A stretch of 44,278 nucleotides of DNA, from the UHGV virus genome UHGV-0261880. One strand, given 5' to 3'. The stretch is from a virus. Both the position numbers and the translations under genes were made by a program. How positions within the stretch are numbered: position 1 is the first letter of the stretch; the number at the start of each line of letters is the position of its first letter. The notes beneath the pieces were generated by a model. It was not told the origin of the DNA. It made no database searches and worked only from the letters and a program-made list of their open reading frames with translations. Below, piece by piece: positions 6,959-39,893 of this stretch.

Positions 6959-6987
6959 TTGCACACCCCAATATAATAGGGTACTAT
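6959..6987 (+). promoter_or_regulatory. Sigma70-like promoter TTGCAC-N17-TACTAT with embedded palindrome AATAG-ggta-CTATT
   Basis: TTGCACaccccaatataatagggTACTATtca about 30 nt upstream of the 7016 start; near-identical copies at 16871 (+), 29274 (-), 28141 (-). Confidence 0.5.
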
Positions 6988-7015
6988 TCACCCGTAACTT
7001 ATTGAGGAAATAATT

Positions 7016-7342
7016 ATGCGTAAATCAGTATTAGCTCTAGGGTTTATGTCTTTTTCTACCTTTGGGTCCCCGTGCGAACAGGTATTTAGTGAATCTGTTC
7101 TTATTACCTCTGGTGTACTTGAGAAAGCCGACCCTACTATTGTAAAGGCGTTTAAGGACTCTACTGTTCGCGAGTGTGAGGCTGCCGTAGAGGTTGGTAA
7201 ATCGGGCCTGCCTCCGCAAGCCGTAACATACTCTGTAATACGTTCGGTAGAGAAAAACGGAGACGCGTTTTACAGCCTACTGACAGCCACCCGTCTGCAA
7301 ATGGTAATGACTGGATGGGCAATAGGCGCAGAAAGTAAATAG
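7016..7342 (+). CDS. Small secreted/periplasmic protein (signal peptide), opposite-strand insertion in tail module
   Basis: 108 aa; N-terminus MRKSVLALGFMSFSTFGSPCEQ is a signal peptide; own promoter; encoded antisense to the surrounding tail genes. Confidence 0.6.
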   Translation: MRKSVLALGFMSFSTFGSPCEQVFSESVLITSGVLEKADPTIVKAFKDSTVRECEAAVEVGKSGLPPQAVTYSVIRSVEKNGDAFYSLLTATRLQMVMTGWAIGAESK

Positions 7343-9614: not shown

Positions 9615-10109
9615 ATGATTATGGATTGGAATGAATTTTTCATATACGATTTAATTTCAGGAAGGATATTTAACAGAGTAACCCGGTCCGGGAGGGCTAA
9701 GGCTGGAGAGGAAGCAGGTACTGTCCAGCGAGACGGATATAGAAGGATATTTTTCCGTGGTAAATGGCATGCGGCGCACCGTATAGCTTGGGACTTAAAC
9801 AATCCTAACGATAAGCTAACCTCGTCAGATCAAATAGACCATCTAGACCATGACCGAATAAACAATAGACCGCTTAACTTAGCTAAAAAGTCCAATGCGG
9901 AAAACCATAAAAATATGTCAAAACAGCGTAATAATAAATCAGGAGTAACCGGAGTTTACTGGAATGCGAAAGAAAGGTTGTGGTACGCACAGATATTCAA
10001 CAATAACGTAAAAACACATATCGGGTGCTTTAAGACGCTACTAGATGCAGTTGCCGCGAGGAGAGTTGCTGAAAGAGATTTGGGGTTCCACGAGAACCAC
10101 GGTAAATAG
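9615..10109 (+). CDS. HNH homing endonuclease with C-terminal AP2-type DNA-binding domain
   Basis: 164 aa; HNH core HAAHRIAW...DHLDHDRINNR; C-terminal SGVTGVYWNAKERLWYAQI...GCFKTLLDAVAARRVAE is AP2-like; AT-rich relative to neighbours. Confidence 0.8.
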   Translation: MIMDWNEFFIYDLISGRIFNRVTRSGRAKAGEEAGTVQRDGYRRIFFRGKWHAAHRIAWDLNNPNDKLTSSDQIDHLDHDRINNRPLNLAKKSNAENHKNMSKQRNNKSGVTGVYWNAKERLWYAQIFNNNVKTHIGCFKTLLDAVAARRVAERDLGFHENHGK

Positions 10110-16551: not shown

Positions 16552-16802
16552 GTTTCCCCTTTCTCGATAAGTAAAGCCCCGCCTTAAAGCGGGGCGCTAG
16601 TCCTTATCATTTAAACATAAAAACAGCGTAATCTCAGTAAACCCGTTACTTTTTACACAAGCAATAGAGTATGGCCCTTCCGAACGCGTCAGCGTAACTA
16701 CACTCAGGACTTACGTCCCGCTCCGTTACCTGCCCGCGCCGCGGTCGCTTGTTCATACTTCACAAGCTCAGGTGGAGCTTAGCACATTTTCAGTGAAAAG
16801 TC

Positions 16803-16818
16803 AACTATTCGAATAGTT
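16803..16818. promoter_or_regulatory. Perfect 16-bp palindrome AACTATTCGAATAGTT
   Basis: Contains the same AATAG/CTATT half-sites as the promoter-associated element but in everted arrangement; lies ~55 nt upstream of the 16871 promoter. Confidence 0.4.
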
Positions 16819-16870: not shown

Positions 16871-16899
16871 TTGCACACACCGATATAATAGGGTACTAT
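16871..16899 (+). promoter_or_regulatory. Sigma70-like promoter TTGCAC-N17-TACTAT with embedded palindrome
   Basis: TTGCACacaccgatataatagggTACTATtca, 30 of 32 nt identical to the 6959 element; ~30 nt upstream of the 16932 GTG start. Confidence 0.5.
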
Positions 16900-16931
16900 T
16901 CATTGCATCGAAACGAGAGGAGGGGTATAAA

Positions 16932-17246
16932 GTGAAAGATGAATTTAAAGGTACGAAAGGACCGTGGGAGTTCAAGAAAGAAAAAGGAGAGCAGGAATGG
17001 TTCGTGTTCCAGAAAGGCTCATTAAAGAAAATGTACGGCTGTACTATACGGACGCCAGTAGCCGAAGAAATTAATGATAAACATGACGCCGAACTTATTT
17101 CCTCGGCTCCGGAGTTACTTGAAGCTCTTCGCCAGCTTCGCGATTATGTTGAGGATGTTTGCGCGGTATCTTCTGATGATTGCCATGAAGACCATCCATT
17201 AAATCTAGCCAACAGAGCAATCAAGAAAGCATTAGGAAAGAAATAA
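16932..17246 (+). CDS. Hypothetical protein, opposite-strand insertion in head module
   Basis: 104 aa, GTG start with GAGGAGGGG RBS; own promoter and terminator; antisense to flanking head genes; ~42% GC. Confidence 0.6.
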   Translation: MKDEFKGTKGPWEFKKEKGEQEWFVFQKGSLKKMYGCTIRTPVAEEINDKHDAELISSAPELLEALRQLRDYVEDVCAVSSDDCHEDHPLNLANRAIKKALGKK

Positions 17247-24472: not shown

Positions 24473-24501
24473 AATATAATTGGTGTAAGAGTAATAGTCA
24501 A
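24473..24501 (-). promoter_or_regulatory. Sigma70-like promoter TTGACT-N17-TATATT (minus strand)
   Basis: Near-consensus hexamers with 17-bp spacer, immediately downstream of a strong terminator and ~35 nt upstream of the 24438 start. Confidence 0.5.
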
Positions 24502-24523
24502 CTAGTCATTGCAGAAAATAGAT

Positions 24524-27870: not shown

Positions 27871-28081
27871 CTTCTGGCTCCTCCCCGTTATATTCTTCGA
27901 ACACAAAGTCGTCGTCCGCAGATAGCGCCCACCAACCATACCCGGTGTAATAGACGTCAAGTTCAGTGCCGTTGTCGTCTATTATGTAGCATCGGCTCTC
28001 GTCGCCGTCTTCTTTGAGGTGGTACAAGTCATTTTTAGTCAGCGCCCAATAACCATCGTAGGATTTGCATTCCAGGAACAT
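27863..28081 (-). CDS. Hypothetical acidic protein
   Basis: 72 aa; first gene after the 28141 promoter. Confidence 0.4.
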   Translation of the reverse strand: MFLECKSYDGYWALTKNDLYHLKEDGDESRCYIIDDNGTELDVYYTGYGWWALSADDDFVFEEYNGEEPEDE

Positions 28082-28112
28082 CTTCCTTCTCTCCTCTCGT
28101 TTGTGTAAATGA

Positions 28113-28141
28113 ATAGTAGCCTATTCTATCTTAGTGTGCAA
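28113..28141 (-). promoter_or_regulatory. Sigma70-like promoter TTGCAC-N17-TACTAT with embedded palindrome (minus strand)
   Basis: Minus-strand reading TTGCACactaagatagaataggcTACTATtca; same family as 6959/16871/29274. Confidence 0.45.
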
Positions 28142-29217: not shown

Positions 29218-29245
29218 CGCTCCTCGGTTTCGTTTTGATAAGTGA

Positions 29246-29274
29246 ATAGTATCCTATTATATTGGGGTGTGCAA
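29246..29274 (-). promoter_or_regulatory. Sigma70-like promoter TTGCAC-N17-TACTAT with embedded palindrome (minus strand), leftward early promoter
   Basis: Minus-strand reading TTGCACaccccaatataataggaTACTATtca, 31 of 32 nt identical to the 6959 plus-strand copy. Confidence 0.5.
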
Positions 29275-29708
29275 GAGAATAGTTACGTTGCCGTTGTGAT
29301 TCTTCAGGTAGGGTTGTGCCTTTATTCTTATTACTTGGTAACTAAAGGGCAGGCCCTAAGCCTGCCCAATAATCGTTACATTTTTACGGTTGCGAATCTA
29401 CGGCACTTTAAGAAAATCAGATACTTAAGATATATTCCGCCGATGGGAATAGAGCTTGCCCAGGGCAACCGGAGATACTTAGGAAGGAAAGTTACGATAA
29501 TTCGAATGTTCAGTAAACTGCCGCCTAACACTTCGCGTTGGGCGCTCGTTTTCGGCGGGTTTTACAAGGTGAACAGGAATCAAAGTAACTAAGATATAGA
29601 AGCACCTTAAACGAAGATTTTCTTAATGTCAATAGGTGCGATTATGTTTGATTTCCCATTATTCGCAATGTATACTTGGTTTCGTTAACTGATAATGGGG
29701 GTTTGAGA

Positions 29709-29879
29709 ATGACACAGAATGAAGTAGCCGAGCGTATTGGGGTTACCCGTCGCACGCTGAATAACTGGTTAAAGAGTGGGAAGTTCCCGGATTGTTGTAT
29801 CCGTATTATGGGCCGCCGGCAGCCGGGTACTTTCGACCCGGAGAAAGTGGAAGCGTGGATTAAGGAGAATGTAAAATGA
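29709..29879 (+). CDS. AlpA/excisionase-like HTH DNA-binding protein
   Basis: Track ORF trimmed to ATG (MTQNEVAERIGVTRRTLNNWLKSGKFP...); MerR/AlpA-type HTH pattern. Confidence 0.55.
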   Translation: MTQNEVAERIGVTRRTLNNWLKSGKFPDCCIRIMGRRQPGTFDPEKVEAWIKENVK

Positions 29880-32435: not shown

Positions 32436-32463
32436 GTAAAAAGAAAGGGGCATTAAGCCCCTT
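32436..32463 (-). terminator. Terminator hairpin AAGGGGC-ATTAA-GCCCCTT with U-tract on minus strand
   Basis: Overlaps the stop of the XRE gene; plus-strand A-run 32436-32444 gives U-tract for minus transcripts. Confidence 0.5.
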
Positions 32464-32668
32464 CACCTAACGCCAGCCACTTGGCGTCTACTTCCAGCAC
32501 TTCCGCCAGTTTAAACAGCGTTGCCGGGCGGACGTCCTGAGTTACTCCGAGTGCAAGCTGATTAATTGCGCCCTGAGAAACTCCCGTCAGGACAGCCAGA
32601 CGGCGCTGGGAGATGCCGAGTTCTTTACGGCGCTGTTCTACACGGATGCCTAGTTCAGATGGTTGCAT
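32453..32668 (-). CDS. XRE-family (Cro/CI-type) HTH transcriptional regulator
   Basis: 71 aa; LGISQRRLAVLTGVSQGAINQLALG is a canonical HTH_3 pattern; TAAGGAG RBS. Confidence 0.7.
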   Translation of the reverse strand: MQPSELGIRVEQRRKELGISQRRLAVLTGVSQGAINQLALGVTQDVRPATLFKLAEVLEVDAKWLALGEGA

Positions 32669-32696
32669 GTCAATTACTCCTTAGTCAGTTGATATG

Positions 32697-32712
32697 TGAA
32701 TAGTACCATATT
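32697..32712 (-). promoter_or_regulatory. Operator-like palindrome copy overlapping the -10 (TACTAT) of the predicted XRE promoter
   Basis: TGAATAGTACCATATT on plus = ...TACTATTCA on minus, ~20 nt upstream of the XRE RBS; weak -35. Confidence 0.4.
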
Positions 32713-32732
32713 AATTATTTTAGAAAAGCCCA

Positions 32733-32761
32733 TTGACAAGTGAATAGTTGGCTATTATAGT
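32733..32761 (+). promoter_or_regulatory. Sigma70-like promoter TTGACA-N17-TATAGT with embedded palindrome AATAG-ttgg-CTATT
   Basis: Consensus -35, 17-bp spacer; 32 nt upstream of the 32793 start. Confidence 0.55.
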
Positions 32762-32792
32762 TAGCCCATACCAAACGAGAGGAGAGAAACAA

Positions 32793-33302
32793 ATGTTAGA
32801 GAAATTCTTAGTATTACTGGAACGTTTCGTAGTTGCACATGAACTGATTGCTGCAAATAGTGTGAAACGCCCGGTGCCGCCGGTTGAGCGTGCAGGTGAA
32901 ATGCTTGTAGACGTGTCGGTTACGGGAGAGGTACTTGAAGTCGACCCAGGCACTGGCGTAGGTAAAGAAATCCCGGTCGAAGGTGAAGACATCGTTGACT
33001 CTAAACCGGCGGAAGAAGAGAAGCCAAAACGCAAGCCGCGTAAAGCTAAAGTAGAGGAACCTACGCCAGAGCCGGAAGAAGAGAAAGAAGAGGTTGATTA
33101 TAAGTCTCTTCGTGACCAGATTCAGGCTATCGACGACGCAATTAACGAAGGTCCGAGCGATGCTGCGTGCGACGATTCCGATGAACTGCTGGAAGAGTTC
33201 ACCGGTAAGAAGATGAAGATTGCCGCGATTAAAGATGAAGACCTGGCTGAATATCTGGAACGCCTGACGGCAATCAAGAACAAGTATTTCGAAGAAGAAT
33301 AA
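32793..33302 (+). CDS. Highly acidic protein, first gene of rightward operon
   Basis: Track ORF trimmed to ATG with GAGAGGAGA RBS; central Glu/Pro/Lys-rich low-complexity region and acidic C-terminus. Confidence 0.5.
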   Translation: MLEKFLVLLERFVVAHELIAANSVKRPVPPVERAGEMLVDVSVTGEVLEVDPGTGVGKEIPVEGEDIVDSKPAEEEKPKRKPRKAKVEEPTPEPEEEKEEVDYKSLRDQIQAIDDAINEGPSDAACDDSDELLEEFTGKKMKIAAIKDEDLAEYLERLTAIKNKYFEEE

Positions 33303-35246: not shown

Positions 35247-35275
35247 TTGACACCTGAATAGTTAGCTATTATAGT
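35247..35275 (+). promoter_or_regulatory. Sigma70-like promoter TTGACA-N17-TATAGT with embedded palindrome AATAG-ttag-CTATT
   Basis: Near-identical to the 32733 promoter; ~55 nt upstream of the 35331 start. Confidence 0.55.
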
Positions 35276-38897: not shown

Positions 38898-39196
38898 CCC
38901 CGGAAGGCAAGATTCAGAAATACTCAAAAGAGCGATTCGAGGCCCTGGGCGGCCTCGTACGCAAATTGTCGTACGAAAATAGAGTGGGCGCTCCTGACCT
39001 GCTGGTAATCCTCCCCGGCGGCATCGTATGGTTCGTTGAGGTTAAGAAAGACGAAAACACGAAGCCAGACCCGCACCAGTTACGGGAGCACGATAGGATG
39101 CGTAAACGTGGCGCGAATGTTTTTGTCGTCGGTTCGTTCAAACAGGTTGACGACCTAATAGCGAACTATTATAGTAGCCATACACCAACAATATAA
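38894..39196 (+). CDS. VRR-NUC domain nuclease (PD-(D/E)XK)
   Basis: 100 aa; GAPDLLVILPGGIVWFVEVKKDE gives the D...EVK catalytic pattern. Confidence 0.65.
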   Translation: MTPEGKIQKYSKERFEALGGLVRKLSYENRVGAPDLLVILPGGIVWFVEVKKDENTKPDPHQLREHDRMRKRGANVFVVGSFKQVDDLIANYYSSHTPTI

Positions 39197-39207: not shown

Positions 39208-39399
39208 ATGAAACACGAATATGACCGCAAACCAGCACGTGACATCGTACCAGGCGACATGATTTTCAACGTTAAAACCCGACAGCCGGTTGCCGTTGAT
39301 ACGGTGTACGTCGAGTCGAACGGTAAACTGGTTATCGAAGACGTAACTGGAAACGTTACGGCGTTCGGGCGTAAAGAGTTAGTTCTGGTGCTGAAATGA
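39208..39399 (+). CDS. Hypothetical protein
   Basis: 63 aa ORF between VRR-NUC and HNH genes. Confidence 0.4.
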   Translation: MKHEYDRKPARDIVPGDMIFNVKTRQPVAVDTVYVESNGKLVIEDVTGNVTAFGRKELVLVLK

Positions 39400-39893
39400 G
39401 TAAATTCAATAGAAGACCCGATATTGAGGAGGCGAAACGTCTTCTTAACTATGACCCCGAAACAGGTATATTTACACGAAAAGTAAGCATAAAAGGGAGA
39501 AATGCTGGGGAGGTAGCCGGAGGGCCAAACGACAAAGGATGCATAGTTATTACAGTCTCCGGTGTAAGAATAAAAGCCCACCATCTGGCATGGGCTTTCG
39601 TCTACGGGGAATATCACAATGGTGAGCTTGACCATAAAGACCGTAACAGGGCCAATAACGCCATAAATAATATAAGGCCCGCAACAAGGAGCCAGCAGAT
39701 TCAGAACCGCGACTGCACCTCGCATAACACCAGCGGCGCGATAGGGGTTTACCAAATACCATCGGGCAGGTGGCGCGCCAGAATAGGCGTCAATAACAGA
39801 TACATCCACCTTGGCTATTTTGACACTATAGAAGAAGCGTCGCGCGTATACCAAAGAGCCGCAGAAATATACTTCGGGGAGTTCAAGGCATGA
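39396..39893 (+). CDS. HNH homing endonuclease with AP2-type domain (second copy of this architecture)
   Basis: 165 aa; KAHHLAWAFVYGEY...DHKDRNRANN; C-terminal IGVYQIPSGRWRARIGVNNRYIHLGYFDTIEEASRVYQRAA is AP2-like. Confidence 0.75.
   Translation: MSKFNRRPDIEEAKRLLNYDPETGIFTRKVSIKGRNAGEVAGGPNDKGCIVITVSGVRIKAHHLAWAFVYGEYHNGELDHKDRNRANNAINNIRPATRSQQIQNRDCTSHNTSGAIGVYQIPSGRWRARIGVNNRYIHLGYFDTIEEASRVYQRAAEIYFGEFKA

Follow-up and report, generated by a model that had tools for sequence, protein, structure and literature searches.

A Cro-like XRE protein as a candidate global repressor of host-polymerase promoters in Kagunavirus phages

What a small helix-turn-helix (HTH) gene controls when it stands back to back with a replication operon, and through which sites it might do so, was the question raised by positions 32669 to 32792 of the virus genome UHGV-0261880 (44,278 nucleotides; this whole stretch is referred to as the window). 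The gene, which encodes the proposed repressor, is a minus-strand open reading frame (32453..32668) for a single-domain XRE protein of 71 aa, and a gap of 124 bp separates it from the plus-strand reading frame starting at 32793. Direct reading of this gap confirmed the two copies of AATAG-N4-(C/A)TATT reported there, and the sequence together with a promoter scan supported the arrangement described with them: back-to-back promoters, an operator-like dyad over each, and an adjoining gene of the XRE/Cro repressor type.

The copy next to the XRE gene, here called O_xre (AATAGTACCATATT, 32699..32712), is one mismatch away from a perfect palindrome and, as had been proposed, overlaps the -10 hexamer TACTAT of the leftward XRE promoter (32705..32700, minus strand). 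No -35 hexamer is recognisable for this promoter, whose predicted core (32700..32708, minus strand) includes a TG placed two bases before TACTAT as an extended -10 (32708..32707); the base that breaks the palindrome is the T of that TG. The mismatch and the TG were unchanged in 37 of 37 Kagunavirus sequences, and the Shine-Dalgarno sequence TAAGGAG of the XRE gene, identified by direct reading (32677..32683, minus strand), was conserved in the 37 Kagunavirus control regions. The other copy, O_R (AATAGTTGGCTATT, 32743..32756), is perfect and lies at about -25..-12 of the rightward promoter TTGACA-17 bp-TATAGT (32733..32761, plus strand); the scan scored this promoter at 11/12 consensus matches, in agreement with its earlier description as near-consensus, and it was the joint-best promoter-like site in the region from 28 to 40 kb. 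Across the 37 control regions, the ten arm positions of O_R were invariant, three of its four central bases varied, and the linker between O_R and the -35 hexamer also varied, including by insertion or deletion. The AT-rich linker between the two promoters (32713..32732) was nearly invariant across the Kagunaviruses and may possibly serve as an UP element for the rightward promoter. The centres of O_xre and O_R are 44 bp apart, with one site per promoter. Jerseyviruses have TTGCAC-17-TACTAT at the position of the XRE promoter instead, and both of their XRE-adjacent copies are imperfect, identically so in 10 of 10 sequences. Autoregulation thus appears weaker than had been implied: a copy is indeed present at the XRE promoter, but it is imperfect in every Kagunavirus and reduced to one good half-site in Jerseyvirus.

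A megablast search placed the surrounding 31.5–34.5 kb at approximately 90% nucleotide identity to E. coli Kagunavirus siphophages of the subfamily Guernseyvirinae, including fFiEco02, K1H and K1ind, with Salmonella Jerseyviruses as more distant matches. Jerseyviruses are described as strictly virulent (PMC9409062). No CI-type repressor, peptidase-domain CI or integrase is annotated in the phages Ivi (Kagunavirus) and FSL SP-101 (Jerseyvirus). The window contains two clear HTH genes, namely the XRE gene and an Xis/TorI-like HTH_17 gene (29676..29879, with a probable true start at 29710). The first gene of the rightward replication operon (32793..33302, plus strand) encodes an acidic protein of 169 aa that belongs to PHROG family phrog_3127, of unknown function; it exhibited no Pfam match and no DNA-binding domain, and it is not a regulator. 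On the opposite side, a terminator scan found a hairpin terminator (32444..32464) where the XRE gene meets the convergent primase-helicase gene. Comparison of the phages PSDA-2 (L003), Tsm2 (L004) and Scapp (L005) with the window revealed that the primase block is inverted in Kagunavirus and Jerseyvirus so that it converges on the XRE gene, and that the inverted block has gained a promoter region of its own at 29245. Elsewhere in the window, two HNH endonuclease genes (39396..39893 and 9615..10109), one with a fused AP2 DNA-binding domain, are probably homing endonucleases inserted into early operons. The window also contains a near-identical family of GC-rich hairpins, AAGGCCCC-N4-GGGGCCTT, at gene-cluster boundaries (9582, 10111, 17252, 18821, 35974 and 41965), which look like a reused and often bidirectional terminator cassette.

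The dyad is not confined to the control region. AATAG-N4-MTATT gave 15 strand-matches in the window, corresponding to eight distinct sites, against a mean of 0.12 and a maximum of 2 in 100 dinucleotide-preserving shuffles. In an unbiased scan of all palindromes with 5-bp arms, AATAG-N4-CTATT ranked first, with seven perfect copies compared with at most four for any other, and the dyad family also ranked first in a scan for repeated 20-mers. All eight sites are located in promoter-like contexts in a fixed register, with a predicted distance from transcript start to downstream start codon of about 22–26 nt (about 49 nt at 35257), and consensus promoter scans over 1–40 kb gave eight hits of 10/12 or better, five of which carry the dyad.

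The promoters fall into two classes. Class A was defined as TTGCAC-17-TACTAT with the dyad at about -19..-6, overlapping the -10, and comprises the sites at 6975 (+), 16887 (+), 28112 (-) and 29245 (-) as well as the XRE promoter; class B was defined as TTGACR-17-TATAGT with the dyad in the spacer at about -25..-12, and comprises those at 32743, 35257 and 39157. Among the class A promoters, the one with the copy at 6975..6988 (plus strand) is predicted to drive an operon starting at 7016, that at 16887..16900 (plus strand) the gene 16932..17246, and that at 28112..28125 (minus strand) the leftward genes starting at 28081. At 29245..29258, a single dyad is common to two overlapping divergent promoters, a leftward class A promoter (TTGCAC-17-TACTAT) and a rightward class B promoter (TTGATA-17-TATATT). 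Besides the replication operon, class B copies lie upstream of the genes for the ssDNA-binding protein and DNA polymerase (35257..35270, plus strand, TTGACA-17-TATAGT) and upstream of a helicase operon (39157..39170, plus strand, TTGACG-17-TATAGT). Two further minus-strand copies with one mismatch, both conserved in Kagunavirus and Jerseyvirus, cover -35 hexamers: 24493..24506, over the -35 of the promoter TTGACT-17-TATATT, which precedes small ORFs and the terminase genes, and 16796..16809, over the TTGACT of a promoter read by eye as TTGACT-17-TAAGCT, which precedes the operon for spanin, scaffold and capsid. At the terminase-proximal site (24473..24506), the mismatch lies on opposite arms in the two groups (ACTAG..CTATT in Kagunavirus, AATAG..CTAGT in Jerseyvirus), and the centre of the dyad, TTGA, is identical in both.

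The sites therefore exist, are placed inside promoters and evolve under constraint. Relative to the -35, the dyad is displaced by 6 bp in class B compared with class A, and class B promoters have a disabled -10 on the opposite strand (AACTAT or CGCTAT) although the left arm is still invariant. Since this arm is kept where sigma-70 reads no bases, and since the registers differ, the dyad does not appear to be itself a promoter element. Invariant arms around a varying N4 are what would be expected where an HTH dimer binds and leaves the central bases uncontacted, and it is very probable that the dyad is a protein-binding operator.

The promoters also have in common a leader and ribosome-binding site, (C)AAACGAGAGGAG, found at 16910-16925, 28085-28100, 32770-32790 and similar positions; on account of this conserved leader, promoter, operator and leader appear to have spread as one cassette. 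The bidirectional promoter at 29245 (29235-29283) is followed by a non-coding gap of about 440 bp (29264..29709) that extends to the Xis-like gene, which probably starts with the ATG at 29710, and the equivalent region of Ivi is unannotated. Terminator-like hairpins occur within the gap at 29347-29367 (minus strand) and 29522-29544 (plus strand), so that the rightward promoter could yield a non-coding RNA of about 270 nt; alternatively, the gap could be a replication origin. An Rfam search of the window returned no matches.

The properties of the XRE protein fit a small repressor of the Cro type. It matched the Pfam family HTH_3 with an E-value of 2.3e-12 and 47.2 bits (curated cut-off 23), and its best solved homologues were 434 Cro and the N-terminal domain of the 434 repressor (E-values of 6e-6 to 1.5e-5, full-length alignment). 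The alignment to 434 Cro spans residues 6–68, and a C-terminal oligomerisation or peptidase domain is absent. An AlphaFold2 model (pLDDT 85) exhibited a five-helix fold (residues 5–17, 21–28, 32–39, 48–57 and 62–66) with helices 2 and 3 as the helix-turn-helix, and Foldseek matched this model to 2cro and 3cro at TM scores of 0.77–0.79 with 36–40% identity, and to 434 Cro, P22 C2, SinR and the C proteins at 0.73–0.81. As modelled, the XRE protein has the fold of 434 Cro, and its closest solved relative is 434 Cro. The 434 repressor contacts bases through Gln28, Gln29 and Gln33 at the start of its recognition helix; Gln32 and Gln37 of XRE align with Gln28 and Gln33, and Gly33 replaces Gln29. The 434 and the Kagunavirus dyads share an A at operator positions 1 and 4 and differ at positions 2–3. 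These partial correspondences are suggestive only.

Taken together, these features point to the XRE protein as a global, Cro-like repressor that acts on the promoters of the host polymerase and whose own promoter has a weakened copy of the operator, a reading to which we assign a probability of roughly 60%. A dimer of the protein would occupy AATAG-N4-CTATT, the 14-bp dyad inside the core of each host RNA polymerase (sigma-70) promoter, where it overlaps the -10, lies in the spacer or overlaps the -35; with this placement, a bound dimer would exclude RNA polymerase. At the perfect O_R, it would close the strong promoter from which the replication operon is read rightward. The XRE promoter, which has an extended -10 and no -35, is covered by the one-mismatch O_xre; the XRE gene would therefore be the last to be repressed, a form of negative autoregulation whose set-point is high. 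Over the whole genome, early and replication transcription would be turned down as XRE accumulates, like the action of Cro in lytic growth, and operator quality would set the timing with which each promoter is shut off. We infer that these promoters are used, that XRE binds the sites, that binding represses, and that shut-off follows such an order. The suggestion that the XRE protein is a plausible master regulator of the early genes is strengthened by the occurrence of the same dyad in all eight to ten strong promoters.

To relate the protein to the motif, their distributions were compared across phage lineages. AATAG-N4-CTATT was present in 38 of 38 Kagunavirus and 11 of 11 Jerseyvirus sequences examined, in nearly all of which it was the top or joint-top palindrome, and the Jerseyvirus dyad is extended to TAATAG..CTATTA. 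The XRE gene was found in about 354 of about 359 Salmonella-phage records, and the number of Kagunavirus-type records containing it (119) was approximately the number with a close DNA polymerase; it is also the sole HTH gene common to all motif-bearing lineages. Speaking against XRE as the binder, the XRE proteins of Kagunavirus and Jerseyvirus exhibited only 48% identity despite the same dyad, and their recognition helices differ at four of seven positions (SQGAINQ versus SQSLITH). The related lineage L072/L077 encodes XRE proteins 48–49% identical and contains a variant dyad, TTAGC-N2-GCTAA, within TTGAC-17-TAAAGT promoters (L072: 6831, 14523 and 16413; L077: 7319, 14545 and 16485). This variant has the same 14-bp frame as the dyad of the window, with TAG at positions 3–5, and resembles the SlyA/MarR-type consensus TTAGCAAGCTAA. 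In the Dhillonvirus Sloth (L205), the order of the replication genes is the same as in the window and the polymerase is 65% identical, but Sloth contains no XRE gene and no site within one mismatch of the dyad. The XRE position in Sloth is occupied by a different protein of 109 aa with a C-terminal HTH, and a palindrome TTGGT-N5-ACCAA occurs in three intergenic regions (L205: 1796, 4933 and 36758), as if regulator and operator had been exchanged in parallel. At the level of sequence, the XRE gene and the motif co-occur across lineages; this co-occurrence is partly circular, since the comparison loci were mostly retrieved through XRE homology and Sloth is the sole independent control.

A further point against XRE is that relatives of the PSDA-2 type keep the XRE gene (about 40% identity) but have almost no clear sites. 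The repeated-20-mer scan of PSDA-2 revealed no dyad family, but a one-mismatch search found degenerate copies; a true absence of sites was therefore rejected, and the result of the 20-mer scan reflects its limit of sensitivity. Comparison of recognition-helix residues with half-sites in seven lineages gave no clean covariation and no residue-to-base rule, which also counts against XRE. Many of the distant XRE matches were CI/LexA-type repressors of unrelated temperate phages and were set aside. When viral contigs were scanned with TGAATAGNNNNCTATTAT, the matches listed were mostly single chance matches, and the multi-copy stretches among them were all Kagunavirus-sized contigs of 41–45 kb plus one 5.2-kb Kagunavirus fragment.

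If the dyad is an operator, a protein other than XRE might occupy it. A host transcription factor conserved in Enterobacterales would explain why the dyad is identical in E. coli and Salmonella phages despite the divergence of their XRE proteins, and why it is also found in a Serratia phage; XRE would then have other targets. We consider this improbable. The half-site varies by lineage, as in L072 and L077, and this favours a binder evolving with the phage over a fixed host factor; moreover, Dhillonvirus, which also infects E. coli, has no such dyad, and the multi-copy stretches among the matches listed all came from Kagunavirus contigs. We know of no E. coli regulator with the consensus AATAG-N4-CTATT, and OxyR sites have ATAG/CTAT arms but an N7 spacing. 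Binding by another phage protein, either the early Xis/TorI-like HTH_17 protein as the lead candidate or else some small protein of unknown function, seems quite unlikely. The distribution of the Xis-like gene was attractive at first: its product is about 81% identical between Kagunavirus and Jerseyvirus, matching the unchanged motif, and it is absent from the PSDA-2-like phages, which have few sites. However, the gene is missing from the Kagunaviruses L013 and L027, which keep three to six perfect sites, and from the Serratia phage Tsm2, which has the dyad in at least three promoters, and it was rejected as the binder on these grounds; the 77-aa gene beside it occurs in only about a third of the Kagunaviruses. 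Proteins of the Xis/TorI type usually bind direct repeats as monomers. In L013 (3624-4209) and L027 (12559-13144), the Xis-like and 77-aa genes are replaced by genes for a 47-aa CxxC...CxxC (zinc-ribbon) protein and a 149-aa protein, which indicates that the slot upstream of the primase gene is variable. The available expression data accommodate either XRE or the Xis-like protein. In RNA-seq of the Kagunavirus vB_Eco_K1B4, a 216-bp gene located 17 bp from the convergent primase gene, which matches the XRE gene by layout, was classed as middle, and a 183-bp Xis-like gene, the apparent counterpart of that in the window, was one of only four early genes (PMC12645636). The classes taken by themselves tell against XRE and for the Xis-like protein, but the timing would also suit a repressor that builds up before it closes promoters, and it does not discriminate between the candidates. 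A literature search for transcript starts of this phage group found none, the only RNA-seq paper giving coarse timing classes (PMC12645636).

A different view dispenses with a separate binder and takes the conserved 20-mer as the promoter itself, either for a phage RNA polymerase or as a symmetric -10 core read in two directions. In the Kagunavirus fBC-Eco01, the 20-mer consensus tgAATAGTa-ccTATTat-T is listed among "phage RNAP promoters" predicted by PHIRE, and this list includes the exact XRE-promoter copy TGAATAGTACCATATTAATT (PMC9825357); for the Kagunavirus VB_EcoS-Golestan, seven PHIRE promoters are given (PMC7203180). The statement that the element was not recognised from a described system holds in that none of its copies is described as an operator, a term search of these two papers giving no mention of the palindrome, an operator or a link to XRE (PMC9825357, PMC7203180); it does not hold for the sequence as such, which was already in the fBC-Eco01 list. 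Two features of the window would suit a promoter without a binder, since GTGAATAGTAnCCTATTATAkT holds both the leftward TACTAT and the rightward TATAKT, and -35 hexamers occur in both directions at 29245. Yet no phage RNA polymerase is annotated among the 80 genes of Ivi or the 57 genes of FSL SP-101, and sigma-70 hexamers of the usual kind (-35 and -10, 17 bp apart) are found at the sites, for which reasons promoters of a phage RNA polymerase were rejected. A symmetric core is difficult to reconcile with the class B sites, where the left arm lies in the spacer and stays invariant next to a disabled leftward -10, and with the shift of register between the classes. A purely promoter role for the 20-mer is accordingly to be strongly doubted, and XRE remains the favoured binder.

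The repression proposed for XRE is a known kind of mechanism, uncharacterised in this phage group, and 434 Cro provides the closest comparison. Like XRE, 434 Cro is a single HTH_3 domain of the same length, and the identity of 36–40% extends over the whole 71-aa protein. Each natural 434 operator is a dyad of 14 bp in which the outer bases are conserved and the centre, untouched by the protein, is variable. The dyad of the window, judged by its sequence, is likewise 14 bp long with four to five conserved outer bp and four variable central bp, and in both systems the operator overlaps the core promoter. AATAG-N4-CTATT agrees with the ACAAG-N4-CTTGT-like 434 sequence at positions 1, 4 and 5 and differs at positions 2–3. 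In contrast to 434, the window has no partner CI repressor and no lysogeny, has Gly as the equivalent of Gln29, and has one operator per promoter instead of three adjacent ones, with operators spread over eight to ten promoters genome-wide. Lambda Cro resembles the proposed repressor as a small protein that is made from an early promoter, lowers early transcription as it accumulates, and is encoded at a divergent control region; it differs in its fold of helices plus beta-sheet, its 17-bp operators and its part in the bistable CI/Cro switch.

These comparisons bear on the lambda OR-like switch seen in the original prediction, which was not upheld. The locus contains only one regulator, the first rightward gene encoding no DNA-binding domain, and each promoter has one operator rather than a share in a tripartite array. 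A bistable immunity switch of the lambda or 434 kind was ruled out by the lack of a second regulator, by the presence of two sites and not three, and by the lack of an annotated integrase, as of any CI-type repressor, in Ivi and FSL SP-101. Further parallels are P1 C1 and mycobacteriophage L5 gp71 with its 'stoperators', in which, as here, one repressor acts on many scattered operators at or near promoters. The window contains eight perfect or near-perfect and two degenerate copies, all in promoter contexts. P1 C1 and L5 gp71 differ in being repressors of temperate lysogeny with asymmetric sites, those of L5 also acting within transcribed regions, whereas the sites of the window are symmetric, lie strictly inside core promoters and belong to a virulent phage. 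The controller (C) proteins of restriction-modification systems, such as C.AhdI and C.BclI, share the XRE fold and a similar size, are among the top fold matches, and resemble the proposed XRE repressor as autoregulators that act with graded affinity on palindromic boxes in their own promoter. However, they activate and then repress through two adjacent boxes and control only their own operon, and no restriction-modification genes adjoin the XRE gene.

A broader form of the proposal can be put forward tentatively, and we regard it as doubtful: a single Cro-like protein might run the whole host-polymerase transcription programme of the strictly virulent Guernseyvirinae, using a 14-bp operator set in a reversible cassette in three registers, with graded shut-off and no activator, sigma factor or second repressor. 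In that case the cassette would carry -10 hexamers for both directions, and shut-off would proceed from the perfect copies at the replication and early operons to the one-mismatch copies at the terminase, capsid and XRE promoters.

Therapy and food biocontrol are common reasons for isolating Kagunaviruses and Jerseyviruses, and the routine annotation of a 'transcriptional repressor' in these phages can suggest a temperate lifestyle; if the protein is shown to be a Cro-type lytic regulator with defined target promoters, this concern would be settled. For synthetic biology, the XRE protein and its operator, together with the compact two-way promoter cassette, could provide an independent repressor–operator pair. 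The regulatory logic is familiar to specialists, so the finding would be useful and unsurprising. If true, it would correct the published label of 'phage RNA polymerase promoters' and would explain the timing of gene expression in a large, otherwise unstudied phage subfamily.
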